Positions 496-29,691 of a DNA stretch of 38,580 nucleotides are shown in pieces. This stretch comes from an uncultured Candidatus Saccharibacteria bacterium. Its GTDB lineage: Bacteria; Patescibacteriota; Minisyncoccia; UBA6257; UBA9933. The notes beneath the pieces are model-generated. The model was not told the origin of the DNA and did no database searches. It saw only the letters and a list, made by a program, of their open reading frames with translations. Both the position numbers and the translations under genes were made by a program. The DNA is taken from contig CAYIWD010000003.1 of assembly GCA_964367055.1 (NCBI GenBank), positions 1-38,580 on the forward strand, read 5' to 3'. The first letter of the stretch is position 1; every line of letters starts with the position of its first letter.

Positions 496-2028
496 TTATT
501 TAACGTAATATTTTTTCTTCATTTCCTCCTCAACACCGCTTTCAAACTCGTCTTTTCTTTCGCCCGCTTTTTTTGCTAATTTTTTAAGCTCGGCGTCTGG
601 TAATATTCCTAAATCTTTAATCTTTAATTTTAAACCTTCAATATTATTTTTTTCCGGCTCTTCAATTACTTCGTCTAGTAAAATCGCCAAAATCTGCCCC
701 ACTTTTGGCCCAGCTGGAATACTTAAAATTCTCATCACATCATTACCGTTGACATTTAGCATTTTTGGCGAGAGCGGATCGTGTTTGACCTTCTCAATCA
801 TAAAAAGTAGGTGTCGATTTTTATAAGGCACCGCCTTGGGCGTGCCTGAGCCGATTCTATCCGCTTCGCGAAGTTTTAATAGATCATCTACATTTTCCGG
901 CCCCACCCGCGCCAAAAACCTTCTCACCCCAGCTTCTGAAACTTCGCCCACATTGTAATAAAACATATGATATCTGACAAGATGGCTAACTTTTTCTATC
1001 GTTTCTTTGGGGAAGCATAATATACCAAGCGCTCGAGCGGCCATTTTAGCGCTAAGTATTTCGTGTCCGTGAAAAGTCGCGTTATAACCTTCGCCTTGTT
1101 TGGTTTTGGGCTTGCCTAAATCATGTAATAAAGAAGCCAGGCGAATTTCCAGCGAATAATTTTGCTTGGCGGCATAATCAAGAGATCTGATATGGTGTTC
1201 AAATACTTCGTATATATGATGAAGATTTTGGGCGGCGCCGATGCCTTGTTCCAATTCGGGGAGAATATATTTTAATAGTCCTAATTTTTCTAAAAGCAAG
1301 ATGCCGCGGCTTGCTCCGGACGCCATAATTGTTTTTATAAATTCGTCGCGGATTCTTTCTTTGGCAATAATTTCTAAGAGCCCAGCGTGTTTTTCTATAG
1401 CTTCACTGGTTTTATTTTCAATCGTAAAATTAAGTTCAACCGCAAATCGCACCGCTCGCAACATTCGCAAAGCATCTTCAGTAAATCGTTTTTCTGGTTC
1501 ACCAACCGCGCGGATAAGTTTGCTTTCTAAATCTTTCTGGCCGTTAAACGAGTCAATTAATTCGTATTCATTCGTATCATTAGTATGCATTCGTATATTG
1601 GTATCACATTTTAATGCGATAGCATTAATCGTGAAATCGCGCCTAGCTAAATCTTCTTCTATTGTTCTGGCAAATTTGATTTCGTCCGGATGGCGTTTGT
1701 CGGTATATTTTCCTTCCAAGCGAAAAGTGGTAATTTCAACAATTTTTAGCGACAGTTCTTCGTTTTCTGTTTTTACGCCAACCGTGCCAAATTGGTTCTC
1801 GTAAACACTATCTGGAAAAATCTCTTGAATTTCTTCTGGCCTTGCGTTTGTCGCAATGTCCCAATCTTTGGGTCCGACCCGTCGGTCGGACTCCGACTGC
1901 GGTCGGAGTTCTTTTAGTAAAAGATCGCGAACGCAACCACCCACCAGATATGGCTGAAAATTAGCTTTAATCAATTGTTTTGCAATATCAATAATCTCTT
2001 TTGGGATTTTTAAATTCTTGATTTCCAT
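496..2028 (-). CDS. cca: CCA-adding tRNA nucleotidyltransferase with HD domain
   Basis: Motifs LVGGCVRD...PKDWDIAT, EITTFR, DLARRDFTINA, RFTEDALRMLRAVRF and LLHDLGK (HD). Confidence 0.93.
   Translation of the reverse strand: MEIKNLKIPKEIIDIAKQLIKANFQPYLVGGCVRDLLLKELRPQSESDRRVGPKDWDIATNARPEEIQEIFPDSVYENQFGTVGVKTENEELSLKIVEITTFRLEGKYTDKRHPDEIKFARTIEEDLARRDFTINAIALKCDTNIRMHTNDTNEYELIDSFNGQKDLESKLIRAVGEPEKRFTEDALRMLRAVRFAVELNFTIENKTSEAIEKHAGLLEIIAKERIRDEFIKTIMASGASRGILLLEKLGLLKYILPELEQGIGAAQNLHHIYEVFEHHIRSLDYAAKQNYSLEIRLASLLHDLGKPKTKQGEGYNATFHGHEILSAKMAARALGILCFPKETIEKVSHLVRYHMFYYNVGEVSEAGVRRFLARVGPENVDDLLKLREADRIGSGTPKAVPYKNRHLLFMIEKVKHDPLSPKMLNVNGNDVMRILSIPAGPKVGQILAILLDEVIEEPEKNNIEGLKLKIKDLGILPDAELKKLAKKAGERKDEFESGVEEEMKKKYYVK
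1561..1605. repeat. 45-bp ATACGAAT-type degenerate tandem repeat, in frame in cca
   Basis: TTCGTATTCATTCGTATCATTAGTATGCATTCGTATATTGGTATC is nearly identical to intergenic 4239-4284 and encodes DTNIRMHTNDTNEYE. Confidence 0.85.
1873..1908. repeat. double-hairpin element (36-bp variant), in frame in cca
   Basis: TCCGAC-CCGTCG-GTCGGA-CTCCGAC-TGCG-GTCGGAG, with the same stems as the copies at 2195, 27456 and 27901. Confidence 0.92.
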
Positions 2029-2174: not shown

Positions 2175-2233
2175 CCGCCCATAGCTCAATTTGGTCCGAC
2201 CGTAGTCGGACTCCGACAAGGGTCGGAGTAGAG
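2175..2233 (+). pseudogene. 5' tRNA fragment with 34-bp double hairpin (2195-2228) in the D-loop
   Basis: CCGCCCA-TA-GCTC-AATTTGG-[element]-TAGAG(C) gives the acceptor 5' strand plus D arm. It runs straight into tRNA-Lys. Confidence 0.85.
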
Positions 2234-2304
2234 CCCCCCATAACTTAACGGCAAAGTAGCTGCCTCTTAAGCAGTAAATCTAGGTTCGATTCCTAGTGGG
2301 GGGA
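2234..2304 (+). tRNA. tRNA-Lys(CTT)
   Basis: Acceptor CCCCCCA/TGGGGGG, anticodon arm GCTGC-CTCTTAA-GCAGT, T arm CTAGG-TTCGATT-CCTAG. Confidence 0.92.
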
Positions 2305-2326
2305 CATTAAAAAATCAAAAATCAAA

Positions 2327-19725: not shown

Positions 19726-20076
19726 TGTTTCGATGGCAGCACTTTTATAAAATTGCAAGTTGAGGACGATTCGTTACCTCATTAATCACCGAATCAAAAT
19801 CATAAGTGTCAACAAAAATTTGACTCCTGCTTTCGCTTTTGCCTAAGCGGCATCCCTTATTAATCGCTCAAGTTGATAAGAAGGGTGTTATACTTTGAGC
19901 TTACTCGTTGGGGTTTTACCAATTTTAACGAGGAAAATTTCAGGTAGAGAATTTGGAGGGTTTTGCTAAATTTTAACTTCTAAATTCTTCCGCCAGTTGG
20001 CGGATTCTAATTTAGCTAAACTTGTAGAGATTTTATAAATTTATTGTCAGACGCGGGTTCAACCCCGCCATTTCCA
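19716..20076 (+). ncRNA. ssrA: tmRNA, tag (A)VNKNLTPAFAFA* at 19808-19846
   Basis: Acceptor GGGAATG/CATTTCC-A with G3:U70, T arm GCGGG-TTCAAC-CCCGC, and a tag ORF after ATAAGT ending in AFAFA. Directly follows smpB. Confidence 0.92.
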
Positions 20077-27265: not shown

Positions 27266-27330
27266 CTGAACCCACCTCCTTTCCAAATAAAATTTTAAAG
27301 GAACTCAACATAAAATTTCAACATATGATG

Positions 27331-27368
27331 TGCGTGTGGATGGAATCGAACCATCGGCCTCCATTTTA
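27331..27368 (-). pseudogene. 3' half of a tRNA-Ile-like gene
   Basis: TAAAATGGAGGCC GATGG-TTCGATT-CCATC CACACGCA matches the 3' halves of the neighbouring copies. Confidence 0.8.
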
Positions 27369-27401
27369 CCCGCCTGCCAAAGCCGATCCGAAATTTTGGT
27401 G

Positions 27402-27502
27402 TGGGTGTGGAAGGGATCGAACCTTCGGCCTCCATTTTATCAGAATGGCGTTCTACTCCGACCGTGGTCGGAGTCCGACAAAGGTCGGACCACTGAGCTA
27501 CG
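27402..27502 (-). pseudogene. tRNA-Ile(GAT) copy lacking the 5' acceptor strand, with the 34-bp double hairpin (27456-27489) in the D-loop
   Basis: GTAGCTCAGTGG-[element]-TAGAACG CCATT-CTGATAA-AATGG ... TTCGATC ... CACACCCA. Confidence 0.88.
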
Positions 27503-27520
27503 TTTTTAAATTTGACAATT

Positions 27521-27880
27521 CTATTCTATATTTAATTTAGTGGGCACACCAAGGATCGAACTTGGGACCTCCATTTTATCAGAATGGCGTTCTACCACTG
27601 AACTATGTGCCCTATGATTCCACGGAAATGTTTTATCTATAATTACTTTTTCTAAAATATCCTTTCTTTTATAACTTTTCAAGCGGTATTCTGACTTTTT
27701 AGCTTCGGTTAAATCTCCGCATAAAATAAAACACTTTAATTCTAATGGACTAATATTCTTCGTTGCCTTAACCAGTCCTTTATTATGTTGTGAGAATCGT
27801 CTTTCTATATTATCAGAACTTCCAATATAATAATAACCATTTTTTAAACTTTTTAAGATATAGACACCAGCCTTTTTCAT
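27521..27880 (-). CDS. small GIY-YIG nuclease (YhbQ/UPF0213/SLX1-like)
   Basis: GVYIL...YYIGSS.NIERR..QHN.G...T....P...EA...E..LK. The last ~30 codons read through tRNA-Ile. Confidence 0.9.
   Translation of the reverse strand: MKKAGVYILKSLKNGYYYIGSSDNIERRFSQHNKGLVKATKNISPLELKCFILCGDLTEAKKSEYRLKSYKRKDILEKVIIDKTFPWNHRAHSSVVERHSDKMEVPSSILGVPTKLNIE
27541..27612 (-). tRNA. tRNA-Ile(GAT), intact
   Basis: Acceptor GGGCACA/TGTGCCC-A, anticodon arm CCATT-CTGATAA-AATGG, T arm CCAAG-TTCGATC-CTTGG. Confidence 0.93.
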
Positions 27881-27952
27881 TTTATCAGGACAGCGTTTTG
27901 CTCCGACCGTTGTCGGAGTCCGACAAGGGTCGGGTCACTGAGCCACACGCCC
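27878..27952 (-). pseudogene. 5' half of tRNA-Ile(GAT) with the double hairpin (27901-27934) in the D-loop
   Basis: GGGCGTG TG GCTC AGTGA-[element]-CAAAACG CTGTC-CTGATAA-AATG. The final ATG is the GIY-YIG start codon. Confidence 0.85.
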
Positions 27953-27957
27953 AAGAG

Positions 27958-28158
27958 TTATTGTATAATTCCTAATTTCTCTAACCCCTCAAAATTAAAT
28001 TGAGTGATTTCTTTGACGTTTGCCAAGTCAGAGTTTGAGGCGTTTCTGGTATTTGTAATCAGAAAATTTACCGAATAGATAATGAACAAAGTCGTAATTA
28101 AAAGCAATAAAACGCCGATGGCGATAAACAAAATTTCACGTTTATTTTTTAATTTCAT
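27958..28158 (-). CDS. small single-pass membrane protein
   Basis: Basic N-terminus plus one TM segment, downstream of the PilO-like gene. Confidence 0.7.
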   Translation of the reverse strand: MKLKNKREILFIAIGVLLLLITTLFIIYSVNFLITNTRNASNSDLANVKEITQFNFEGLEKLGIIQ

Positions 28159-28180: not shown

Positions 28181-28696
28181 TTAGAAGGAAAATACGCCGC
28201 CAGTCATCAATAATCCAAAATCTTTTTCTTGTTTGGCGATATCAATTGTTTTAAATTTAATGAAGTATTGGCCGTTTTCAAGCGTCTTTAAAAAAACCAC
28301 AAAACCCTCAAAAGAACCCTGGCCACTGATGGTGAAGTTGGTTTGCTGTAATTCTTCGCTGTCTTGATATTCTCCTTGGCCAAGAGTTGTATTTAAATTA
28401 AACTTATTTTGTTTGGCAATACTAACGATATTTTTGGGAAAGGCAATTAATTGGTCGCGACTAGGTAAAATATTTTGAAGCGTAGCTTCGTAACTTTTTG
28501 CTGTTTCGGCTTGTTGATTTAGAATTGCCAAAGAGTCAGTTAGCCCCGTCTGGAAAAGCAAATCCCCTCTTAATTTCTCAATTTGGCTAGTTTTTTTACT
28601 CATATCAGAGCCGACAAAAAACAGAGCCAATATTAAAGTTAAGCAAACGCCCAAGGGGACGGTAATAATAACCAAGAGACGCTTTCTAAAATTCAT
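28181..28696 (-). CDS. PilO/GspM-like type IV pilus assembly protein
   Basis: N-terminal TM, coiled coil, LP motif, then G.F.....FL..LE....FI pattern of the ferredoxin-like domain. Confidence 0.65.
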   Translation of the reverse strand: MNFRKRLLVIITVPLGVCLTLILALFFVGSDMSKKTSQIEKLRGDLLFQTGLTDSLAILNQQAETAKSYEATLQNILPSRDQLIAFPKNIVSIAKQNKFNLNTTLGQGEYQDSEELQQTNFTISGQGSFEGFVVFLKTLENGQYFIKFKTIDIAKQEKDFGLLMTGGVFSF

Positions 28697-28801
28697 ACCC
28701 AGTGCTACAACAATTTGTAATAATCATATAGTTTCGACTTTTTATATTTATTAAATATTTTTATGCCAGCACCACATTACTTTAGTTGTAGCACCGGGCA
28801 T
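28695..28801. repeat. 107-bp segment bounded by 17-bp inverted repeats (15/17 match)
   Basis: ATACCCAGTGCTACAAC ... GTTGTAGCACCGGGCAT. Confidence 0.75.
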
Positions 28802-28815
28802 ACTATAATTATAGA

Positions 28816-29691
28816 ATGAATAAACCAGAAATCAAATCAATTTATGCCAAAGAGCCGGGCTTCCCTTCGCTTCTGAAAGAAATTCAAAATCCACCTTCAA
28901 AAATTTTTATTTTGGGAAAATTACCAAGCGATCCGCCGGCTGGCGGACCTAAAATCGCCGTTGTCGGCACGCGAAGAGCTACTCTTCAAGGTCGTTTGCT
29001 TGCCAAGGAAATAGCCAAAAAATTAGCTGAAAAAGGGATAATAATTGTTAGTGGCTTGGCAATGGGTATTGATACTTCAGCTCACGAAGGCGCGCTTTTA
29101 GCTAATGGGCAAACCATCGGAGTTTTAGCTTGCGGTTTGGATAATATTTATCCTCGGCAAAACGAGAATTTAGCTAAGCATATTATTGAAAATGACGGGG
29201 CGATTATTTCGGAATATCCGGTTGGCACAGAAGCCTTTAAAAATCATTTTTTAGAACGCAATAGAATTATCAGCGGCTTATGTATCGCTACTATTATTAT
29301 AGAAGCGCCGCAGGAATCTGGAGCTTTGGTAACGGCTCGCTTAGCCGCCGAGCAAGGCCGGGAAGTTTTTGTTGTGCCGGGCGGAATTAACAATCCCAAT
29401 TATTATGGTTCTCATAAATTAATTAGAGACGGCGCGAGGTTGGTCGGTTCAATTGATGATATTTTTGAGGATTTAGGTATTGATATCCATCAGCCTAAAT
29501 TAGCGTTTGAAAAAATTAAAGACAAAAATCAATCAGCTATTTTTCAAACTATTCAAGAGGCGGGGGAGGCGTTAAATATTGACAAAATTATTGAACTGAC
29601 TAAACTTGAACCGCAAATAGTCAATCAATCTCTGGCGCTTCTAATTATTCAAGGCATAATAAAAGAGACAGAGAAGGGATATACAATATAA
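28816..29691 (+). CDS. dprA: DNA-processing protein DprA
   Basis: IAVVGTR, IVSGLAMGID..AH, F.ERNRIISG and SGALVTA..A.EQGREVF motifs. Confidence 0.97.
   Translation: MNKPEIKSIYAKEPGFPSLLKEIQNPPSKIFILGKLPSDPPAGGPKIAVVGTRRATLQGRLLAKEIAKKLAEKGIIIVSGLAMGIDTSAHEGALLANGQTIGVLACGLDNIYPRQNENLAKHIIENDGAIISEYPVGTEAFKNHFLERNRIISGLCIATIIIEAPQESGALVTARLAAEQGREVFVVPGGINNPNYYGSHKLIRDGARLVGSIDDIFEDLGIDIHQPKLAFEKIKDKNQSAIFQTIQEAGEALNIDKIIELTKLEPQIVNQSLALLIIQGIIKETEKGYTI
28932..28947. repeat. TCCGCC-N4-GGCGGA hairpin in dprA
   Basis: TCCGCC-GGCT-GGCGGA, encoding PPAGG. Confidence 0.75.

Follow-up and report, generated by a model that had tools for sequence, protein, structure and literature searches.

The Rickettsia palindromic elements, reportedly described by Ogata and colleagues in 2000, are palindromic repeats that are found in frame within genes; they are about 100 to 150 bp and are confined to Rickettsia. 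Palindromes of the repetitive extragenic palindromic (REP) and bacterial interspersed mosaic element (BIME) type are 20 to 40 bp, often paired, and thought to move as single-stranded hairpins, and they are by definition extragenic. Mitochondrial elements made of two hairpins are said to have been described by Paquin and colleagues, also in 2000. SegB of phage T4 is a free-standing GIY-YIG homing endonuclease located in a tRNA gene cluster, and to our knowledge no dispersed hairpin module accompanies the Seg genes. Here, a short double hairpin within cca, the gene for a tRNA nucleotidyltransferase, is analysed in a bacterium of the candidate phyla radiation (CPR). The window is the whole of the 38,580-nucleotide contig CAYIWD010000003.1 (contig C3) from the genome of an uncultured Candidatus Saccharibacteria bacterium (assembly GCA_964367055.1), called the source genome throughout.

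Like the Rickettsia elements, this is a dispersed palindrome that is present in frame in housekeeping genes, is apparently tolerated in a loop, and has no coding capacity of its own. It differs from them in being 35 nt in length, in being composed of two small hairpins, in its CPR hosts, and in its link to a GIY-YIG gene and to pieces of tRNA genes. Unlike REP sequences and their REP-associated tyrosine transposases (RAYT), copies are found inside cca and other genes, and the RAYT-like genes of the source genome carry other palindromes. As in the Seg genes, a small GIY-YIG gene is lodged in a tRNA gene cluster, surrounded by pieces of tRNA that have been duplicated or displaced, although the CPR nuclease gene is only about 90 codons, without a separate DNA-binding domain. 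With the hairpin elements of fungal and sponge mitochondria it shares two GC-rich hairpins with conserved stems and variable loops, an AT-rich genome, and an occasional location in genes; those elements are organellar and unrelated in sequence, and the available portion of the account describes no linked nuclease gene (PMC2800124).

For the Ssn nucleases and their NTS/SRM hairpins, it has been reported that SsnA cuts single-stranded DNA beside the hairpin, and the authors liken the hairpin-flanked nuclease gene to insertion sequence architecture in the part of the article that is available (Chenal et al. 2025, PMC11893778). In both systems, a small single-domain GIY-YIG protein is accompanied by a hairpin repeat that flanks the gene and is scattered in the genome, as far as the accessible text describes the Ssn system. 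The window locus also has an extra hairpin copy beyond the downstream tRNA, as in the Ssn layout. The NTS consensus in that text consists of one hairpin only, of about 30 bp, and by eye its sequence is not that of the TCCGAC double hairpin, and the main text of PMC11893778 mentions neither tRNA nor Patescibacteria. The element falls outside the size and host range of the Rickettsia elements, the NTS consensus, and the REP type, not being extragenic and having no cognate Y1 transposase gene. A full-text literature search found no published description of such elements in CPR bacteria.

The double hairpin and its host gene

The element has a GC-rich core of 35 nt, made up of two TCCGAC/GTCGGA hairpins, with a G on each side. 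Read on the plus strand, its parts are G, TCCGAC, CCGTCG, GTCGGA, C, TCCGAC, TGCG, GTCGGA, and G. The initial annotation had described 36 bp that make up 12 in-frame codons of cca, and the sequence and the open reading frame (ORF) agree: codons 41 to 52 are exactly positions 1873 to 1908 and encode LRPQSESDRRVG, preceded by ...GGCVRDLLLKE and followed by PKDWDIAT, in which the first residues are P53-K54-D55-W56-D57. There is no stop codon within the 36 nt in this frame, and cca is the sole long ORF across the element, which lies three residues before the catalytic aspartates.

Two adjacent hairpins are predicted for the 50-nt stretch containing the element, both as RNA (-24.6 kcal/mol, z -3.76, with 3 of 200 shuffles folding as well) and as DNA (-14.7 kcal/mol, z -3.9, with none of 200 shuffles as stable). 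A first loop of 6 nt had been annotated, which is correct if strict 6-bp stems are counted. The extra C and G are complementary, however, and the folds give hairpin 1 an 8-bp stem and a 4-nt loop, CGTC, where the corresponding loops of the other three copies in the window are CGTA, CGTG, and CGTT.

A palindrome may be of local origin, formed by template switching or by slippage in replication, and assemblers can be misled by repeats. Such an accident or artefact is here refuted for practical purposes. The single-hairpin pattern has 7 matches in the window against 0.01 expected by chance (100 shuffles) and, in the genome-wide motif search that had been proposed, 18 sites against none for a reversed control pattern. 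The same stems are found at 5 sites in the source genome and at 52 credible sites elsewhere. Logan contigs from three runs, which belong to one study and are probably the source samples, cross the site with 0 differences, and the insert is shared by P0002, an independent protein of metagenomic origin. The Logan contig of one relative stops aligning exactly at position 1873.

Between the RD and DWD motifs, the spacer in this cca is 18 residues, compared to 7 in orthologues, a net gain of 11 residues (33 nt). The 7-residue spacer is present in 31 of 36 cca genes of relatives (two by eye), in 79 of the 119 best database homologues, in 99 of 112 readable loci from genome searches (own gene counted), and in 58 of 76 readable metagenome loci; the metagenome scan gave 80 loci at no more than 76% identity and the genome scan reached no more than 70%. 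In an HMMER alignment to the structure 6ibp in the PDB there is an 11-residue gap at the insert point. Because the empty site is found in most relatives, in most database homologues, and in solved structures, the hairpin in cca is, on these comparisons, an insertion. Deleting it had been said to restore a motif close to the usual one. The insert is indeed real, but the net gain is 11 residues rather than 12: the LLLKE ahead of it is one residue shorter than the usual LLLxxE, and without the 12 codons the spacer would have one residue fewer than in orthologues. A search of genome contigs for the hairpin stem joined to codons for PKDWD gave 15 matches, all of them non-CPR chance matches.

The host gene looks intact. 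Its ORF has the PolyA_pol head, RNA-binding, HD, and tRNA_NucTran2_2 domains, and the features of class II CCA-adding enzymes are present, namely the PolyA_pol head and the GG...DxD, RRD, and EDxxR motifs. The sequence matches the solved CCA-adding enzymes 6ibp and 1miv, and CCA-adding enzymes are the best fold matches of its model, with 1miv first. The score is under the cut-offs of the NCBIfam CCA equivalogs, and the specificity may be CCA-, CC-, or A-adding. The names on its homologues are Wolfebacteria, Paceibacterota, and Patescibacteria. All residues that are invariant in an alignment of 60 sequences are retained, including G30, G31, D55, W56, D57, R129-R130-D131, and D185-R188. An inactive duplicate had been named as a possibility, but cca itself is the one match to PF01743 in the source genome (574,538 bp in 34 contigs, 37% GC, rated 92% complete). 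CCA is encoded by 8 of the 29 predicted tRNA genes, and the other 21 lack it, as the initial annotation had anticipated for most of them. Since the gene is single-copy, keeps its invariant residues, and serves a genome in which most tRNA genes have no encoded CCA, the enzyme is very probably needed and active.

Motif A of the enzyme is G30-G31...D55-x-D57, and the insert lies between helix 31-41 and strand 56-60. In the AlphaFold2 model (mean predicted local distance difference test score, pLDDT, 84.9) this helix and strand are preserved, structure prediction having been suggested for the placement of the loop; residues 41-50 have a pLDDT of 56 and the neighbouring blocks 90 and 87. In the model, the insert is thus a floppy detour in the segment of motif A that links helix to strand.

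A tree of 60 cca proteins was built after removal of the loop. This protein (P0001) and P0002 are sisters, with support of 96 in the approximate likelihood ratio test of the Shimodaira-Hasegawa type (SH-aLRT), are 81% identical, and both have a filled site. The P0002 insert, LRPQSESDRWVG, has 11 of its 12 residues the same as in P0001, the single change being in a loop codon. The next relatives, P0004, P0003, and P0005 (75-83% identical), have the empty site. As the two sister proteins are both filled, the insert is older than the split of their lineages. In a distant part of the tree, P0051 and P0025 stand among empty sequences and carry the same kind of insert (LRRASRSESDRSIG and LRPQSESDEAPTEVGVEIG) at the same Glu-Pro junction; their versions are 42 and 60 nt, in frame, with all six preceding residues present. 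The junction was placed by protein comparison for P0002 to P0005. It has probably been hit more than once, the alternative being loss in the intervening lineages.

The element family and its GIY-YIG cassettes

Five exact double hairpins are present in the source genome. Its variants are the copy at 27902-27934, which has one stem mismatch, a long-loop copy in a T-arm fragment on contig C21, and a copy on C10. The C10 variant (C10:19450-19500; 1470-1520 of locus L014) forms the last 15 or so codons of a 292-aa ORF, ending ...SDLLSDSDKVRRGGG before the stop codon, and has remodelled the C-terminus of this ORF. There is also a single TCCGAC-pattern hairpin at C6:4303.

A search of species-representative genomes identified 57 hairpin loci, of which 52 are credible and nearly all from CPR bacteria; the other five are high-GC non-CPR loci that were discounted as chance. 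The core is 33 nt in 21 copies, 34 in 19, 35 in 5, and 36 in 4, with an overall range of 33-39 nt, and the stems are conserved while the loops vary freely. Among 55 distinct copies, G is present at -1 in 54 and at +1 in 54. Position -3 is mostly T and -2 is G or A, with T at +2 in 26 and A at +3 in 35. The conserved flanks are G...G and not the GT...GT that had been noted. With a slash marking the insertion point, the sites in tRNA pieces are GG/TAGAGC (D loop) or GG/TTCGAAT (T loop), and the antisense strand of cca reads GG/TTC. A D-loop-like target as a strict rule was rejected, only the G at -1 and the G at +1 being near-invariant and the coding copies varying at -2 and -3.

Open frames with Pfam support cross the hairpin in genes for FtsK (2), PolA, LeuRS, a beta-CASP protein, NusA, GyrB (2), ParB, and a spermidine-synthase-like protein. 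The centre C is in the sense strand in all ten of the Pfam-supported coding copies elsewhere (L228, L236, L247, L054, L264, L271, L276, L260, L227, and L225), and likewise in the C10 copy, in all tRNA-borne copies, and in all copies upstream of GIY-YIG genes. The initial annotation had interpreted the hairpin as mobile or amplifying and tolerated in the manner of the Rickettsia elements. Its observation is confirmed and this interpretation is supported by the plentiful empty sites found through orthologue comparison, by the occurrence of the element in about 50 other CPR genomes, and by the in-frame copies in housekeeping genes.

Many copies (L222, L256, L257, L265, L275, L276, and others) end 10-12 nt ahead of an ATG, with a 3' stem that ends in GGAG, and a Shine-Dalgarno-like motif may thus be supplied by the element. 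Another GC-rich repeat, longer than this one, has hairpins of the form CCCGACC(C)GTGGTCGGG flanked by gagcgggcatgg and is found on contigs C7, C10, C13, C14, C16, C18, C19, C20, C21, C28, and C30 of the source genome. It is often at contig ends and probably breaks the assembly.

The other copies in the window are associated with tRNA genes (Table 1).

Table 1. Positions in the window of cca, the double hairpin, and the tRNA-associated features
Feature	Position	Strand	Remarks
cca, class II tRNA nucleotidyltransferase with HD domain, 510 aa, single copy	496..2028	-	
Double-hairpin element, G + 35-nt core + G	1872..1908	+	Centre C on plus strand, antisense to cca
Dead tRNA 5' piece (acceptor and D arm), hairpin 2195-2227 in D loop at GG/TA	2175..2233	+	Directly abuts tRNA-Lys(CTT)
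Intact tRNA-Lys(CTT), no encoded CCA	2234..2305	+	
tRNA-Ile-like copy without 5' acceptor strand, hairpin 27457-27489 in D loop	27391..27500	-	
Intact tRNA-Ile(GAT)	27540..27612	-	Directly after GIY-YIG ORF
Small GIY-YIG nuclease ORF, about 92 aa	27605..27880	-	75% identical to C5:20318-20587
tRNA-Ile(GAT)-like 5' half to anticodon loop, hairpin 27902-27934 in D loop	27881..27953	-	

Three copies had been described as tRNA-borne. The tRNA-like sequence is there, but these are dead fragments by small GIY-YIG genes and not working tRNAs: ARAGORN called a tRNA in none of five hairpin-bearing pieces (including those on C5 and C21), whether with the hairpin or after its removal. A scan of five loci with other hairpin copies at the Rfam gathering cut-off found tRNAs only.

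On the minus strand, from 27953 to 27391, the order is a 5' half with its hairpin, the GIY-YIG ORF, the intact tRNA-Ile(GAT), and a second hairpin-bearing tRNA-Ile-like copy. The ATG of the nuclease gene is one base past the anticodon loop of the 5' half. The only Pfam family found in the ORF is PF01541 (E 7e-15), with NCBIfam GIY-YIG matches that are weak and sub-threshold. Contig C5 repeats this layout, having an Asn-like 5' half, the related GIY-YIG ORF, and tRNA-Ile(TAT). The frame of the window gene is open to 27521, 27 codons across the tRNA-Ile, and that of the C5 copy stops inside the first bases of the downstream tRNA. A further tRNA-Ile 3' half is located at approximately 27330-27370 within the same cluster (27330-27960, minus strand), which looks like the product of repeated cassette invasions, each bringing a fresh tRNA.

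The hairpin is linked to one GIY-YIG subfamily. In the source genome, the ATG of both genes of this subfamily is 21 nt downstream of the hairpin. At 7 hairpin loci in other genomes, the GIY-YIG ORFs are closest to this subfamily (53-68% identity, as opposed to 37-48% to the other GIY-YIG proteins of the source genome). A protein-only search of 300 other genomes of the class identified 2 subfamily members, both with TCCGAC-type hairpins upstream within about 10 nt of the ATG and with a tRNA gene directly after the ORF. Thus, the hairpin is just upstream in 4 of the 4 subfamily genes that were found without reference to it. A locus search with the GIY-YIG protein gave only 6 weak loci. In the flanks of the other small GIY-YIG genes of the source genome the TCCGAC hairpin was not found, some of them having other palindromes.

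This association bears upon the suggestion that the hairpin is a REP-like repeat moved not by a GIY-YIG protein but by a Y1 tyrosine transposase of the RAYT or IS200 type. REP elements are short, often paired palindromes according to the part of the source that is available (PMC3733652), and the source genome has three PF01797 matches above the cut-off (C16:5397-5669, C1:1825-2058, and C14:7636-7902). However, the C16 and C1 genes each have a different palindrome of their own on either side (AAGGACGTC...GACGTCCTT and TAACGAC...GTCGTTA), the 300 nt around all three genes contain no TCCGAC hairpin, and it is one GIY-YIG subfamily that the hairpin accompanies across genomes. A Y1-driven repeat is therefore unlikely. 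The C16 and C1 genes have in themselves a REPtron-like layout in a CPR genome.

In the vicinity of the cca copy, hairpin 2 and the TTTT that follows (1888-1921) have a terminator-like score, on the plus strand only, antisense to cca, which is probably incidental. A terminator role was rejected, since the T run is native coding sequence for LLLKE and, read in the direction of the mRNA, the hairpins have no run of U after them. The cumulative GC skew of the window has its minimum at about 28,500-28,800, where the genes shift from mostly minus to mostly plus strand, and this may be a replication origin. A replication-strand rule for the hairpins was also rejected, as the four window copies are split 2:2 between the strands on the left arm of the skew switch.

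Tolerance of inserts in the motif A loop

Inserts recur at about six places in the cca genes of CPR bacteria, and the loop discussed here is among these. Inserts of at least 4 aa are present in the motif A loop (after residues 38-52) in 22 of 164 distinct CPR cca proteins. Other recurrent sites in the 164 are after residues 22, 71 (19 sequences), 86-92, 149 (36), and 199-201 (18). On the 60-row tree, the state of having any insert in the loop changes at least 13 times, and the loop carries at least 10 unrelated inserts in other lineages. Several of these are GC-rich hairpins of other families, such as TCCGCCAGCTGGCGGA in two genomes and a nested pair, GCCGCCCC.../GGGGCG..., in four loci. Tolerance of inserts in this loop is well supported, and a true target preference is possible.

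It could be supposed that the insert has been co-opted, either as a protein loop near the active site, contacting tRNA or tuning CCA addition, or as a regulatory hairpin of the cca mRNA. Its retention in two lineages with near-identical residues, the same type of element at the same junction in P0025 and P0051, and the strength of the RNA fold are all in keeping with this. Most relatives, on the other hand, do without the insert, AlphaFold2 gives it low confidence, and the unrelated inserts in the loop and at the other insert regions fit tolerance and not need. Co-option is accordingly improbable.

Still less probable, to the point of being scarcely credible, is that the element is removed from the transcript in the manner of an intron, leaving a protein without the insert. 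There is nothing direct in favour of removal, besides the occurrence of the hairpin in pieces of RNA genes as well, and those hairpin-bearing tRNA pieces are not functional tRNAs. The length is a multiple of three and stop-free, as expected for read-through, the 42- and 60-nt versions of the relatives are also in frame, and excision of the 36 nt would make the spacer shorter by one residue than in all orthologues. The fungal double-hairpin elements are reported to stay in transcripts, in the portion of the account available (PMC2800124).

Some further observations were made on this loop. The TCCGCCAGCTGGCGGA family, with its close variants, is a second hairpin family of the source genome, found in the window at 19989-20004 and 28932-28947 and on contigs C7, C9, C16, C21, and C30. 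In two other genera (L040 and L111), a hairpin of this family is in frame (NPPAGG / SPPAGG) in the same cca loop. P0012 and P0054-P0060 have nearly identical cca sequences (branch lengths of no more than 0.013) with and without a 10-residue insert, NPPHKFMWGMNRE, in this loop, which has been gained or lost very recently; the residues would be compatible with palindromic DNA. The cca of L053 (G030:C4) has an in-frame TGA at the invariant Trp of DWD (VND-stop-DITT), and this could be read as Trp in that lineage, be an error, or mark a broken gene.

A proposed origin and its implications

Taken as a whole, the observations are probably best explained by the insertion into cca of a miniature element that has been tolerated there and that may be mobilised by a linked GIY-YIG protein. 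The 36 bases would be one copy of a miniature, non-autonomous palindromic element made up of two adjacent GC-rich hairpins with stems of 6-7 bp, variable loops, and G...G bounds. Its usual home would be the D loop (GG/T) of a disabled tRNA piece, shortly ahead of a free-standing GIY-YIG gene (about 90 aa) that has an intact tRNA gene after it. There, the hairpin may serve the GIY-YIG cassette as its recognition module, in the way that NTS serves SsnA. It could be copied to new sites via single-stranded DNA intermediates that are recognised or nicked by the linked nuclease, a role assigned to the nuclease by analogy, and orphan hairpins would be copied to GG/T-like sites.

Within genes, only copies that keep the frame and lie in permissive loops would survive. 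One such copy would have landed antisense in cca at the Glu-Pro junction of ...E/PKDWD (antisense GG/TT), in the common ancestor with the P0002 organism. Its persistence may be due to a length divisible by three, to the lack of a stop codon, and to a location in the permissive connection between helix A (GGxVRD...) and the strand. At the D or T loop of a tRNA, the element would add 33+1 nt at GG/T, which shifts the frame, and the extra C-G pair of the cca copy would bring this to 36 nt. The initial annotation had proposed a compensating gain of 2 nt. The data are consistent with it, in that 36 nt keeps the frame, and the extra pair fits a frame filter; this is unproven, however, loop lengths varying whatever the context, and the pair cannot be distinguished from the ordinary loop variation of the family.

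Several points weigh against this explanation. The mobility of the element is deduced from its distribution, and that distribution is patchy, with the exact double hairpin in 1 of 60 close relatives. Hairpins could in principle be substrates for the three Y1 (IS200/RAYT-like) transposases that the genome encodes. In cca the copy is antisense, as are those of P0002, P0025, and P0051 as judged by their peptides, and this departs from the sense orientation of the other coding copies. The coding copies have cores of 33, 34, or 35 nt, and their net insertion length fits no single rule. No empty-site allele, or joint skipping 1873-1908, was found in the contigs of four runs, although contigs drop rare variants and this is weak. 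Among the runs listed as containing the stretch, none is of RNA. The element would have to be transcribed and translated as a net extension of 11 residues to a disordered loop in an enzyme that presumably stays active. From G31 to the first catalytic Asp there are 23 residues here, compared to 12 in orthologues. The nucleotidyltransferase signature has 9-13 residues from G[GS] to the first catalytic Asp, and the cca with the insert falls outside of this spacing. With the GG-to-Asp spacing doubled by the insert, there may be some catalytic cost.

A stronger proposition is that the hairpin and the GIY-YIG gene together constitute a mobile element of a class not described before, homing to the tRNA genes of CPR bacteria, of which the 35-nt hairpin can transpose alone with a real preference for GG/T in a D- or T-loop-like context, so that the antisense strand of cca has been hit repeatedly and site-specifically. 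The antisense strand of cca reads ..CAATCTTTGG/TTC, compared to ..CTCAATTTGG/TAG in the tRNA piece that is 290 bp away, and repeated targeting of this kind would explain why three cca lineages or more (P0001/P0002, P0025, and P0051) have the element at one and the same junction and in the unusual antisense orientation. This proposition is conceivable but doubtful. If it is true, site-specific targeting would amount to selfish insertion into the enzyme that finishes tRNAs, going beyond the tolerance of random hits.

What is new in this case is that the host is cca, with the insert beside the catalytic DxD, that the Glu-Pro junction appears to have been reused in other lineages, and that the orientation is antisense. 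Even CPR genomes streamlined to about 0.6 Mb continue to be colonised by selfish DNA of very small size, which essential enzymes can absorb as extra loops, here no more than three residues from the catalytic aspartates of the only CCA-adding enzyme. Such inserts may explain many of the odd "CPR-specific loops" in protein alignments. They may also show where a protein could be engineered at permissive sites, and both assembly and gene calling can fail because of them. The pairing of hairpin and nuclease provides a testable model for the movement of mini-palindromes, and would extend the Ssn/NTS principle to cassettes lodged in the tRNA genes of CPR bacteria.

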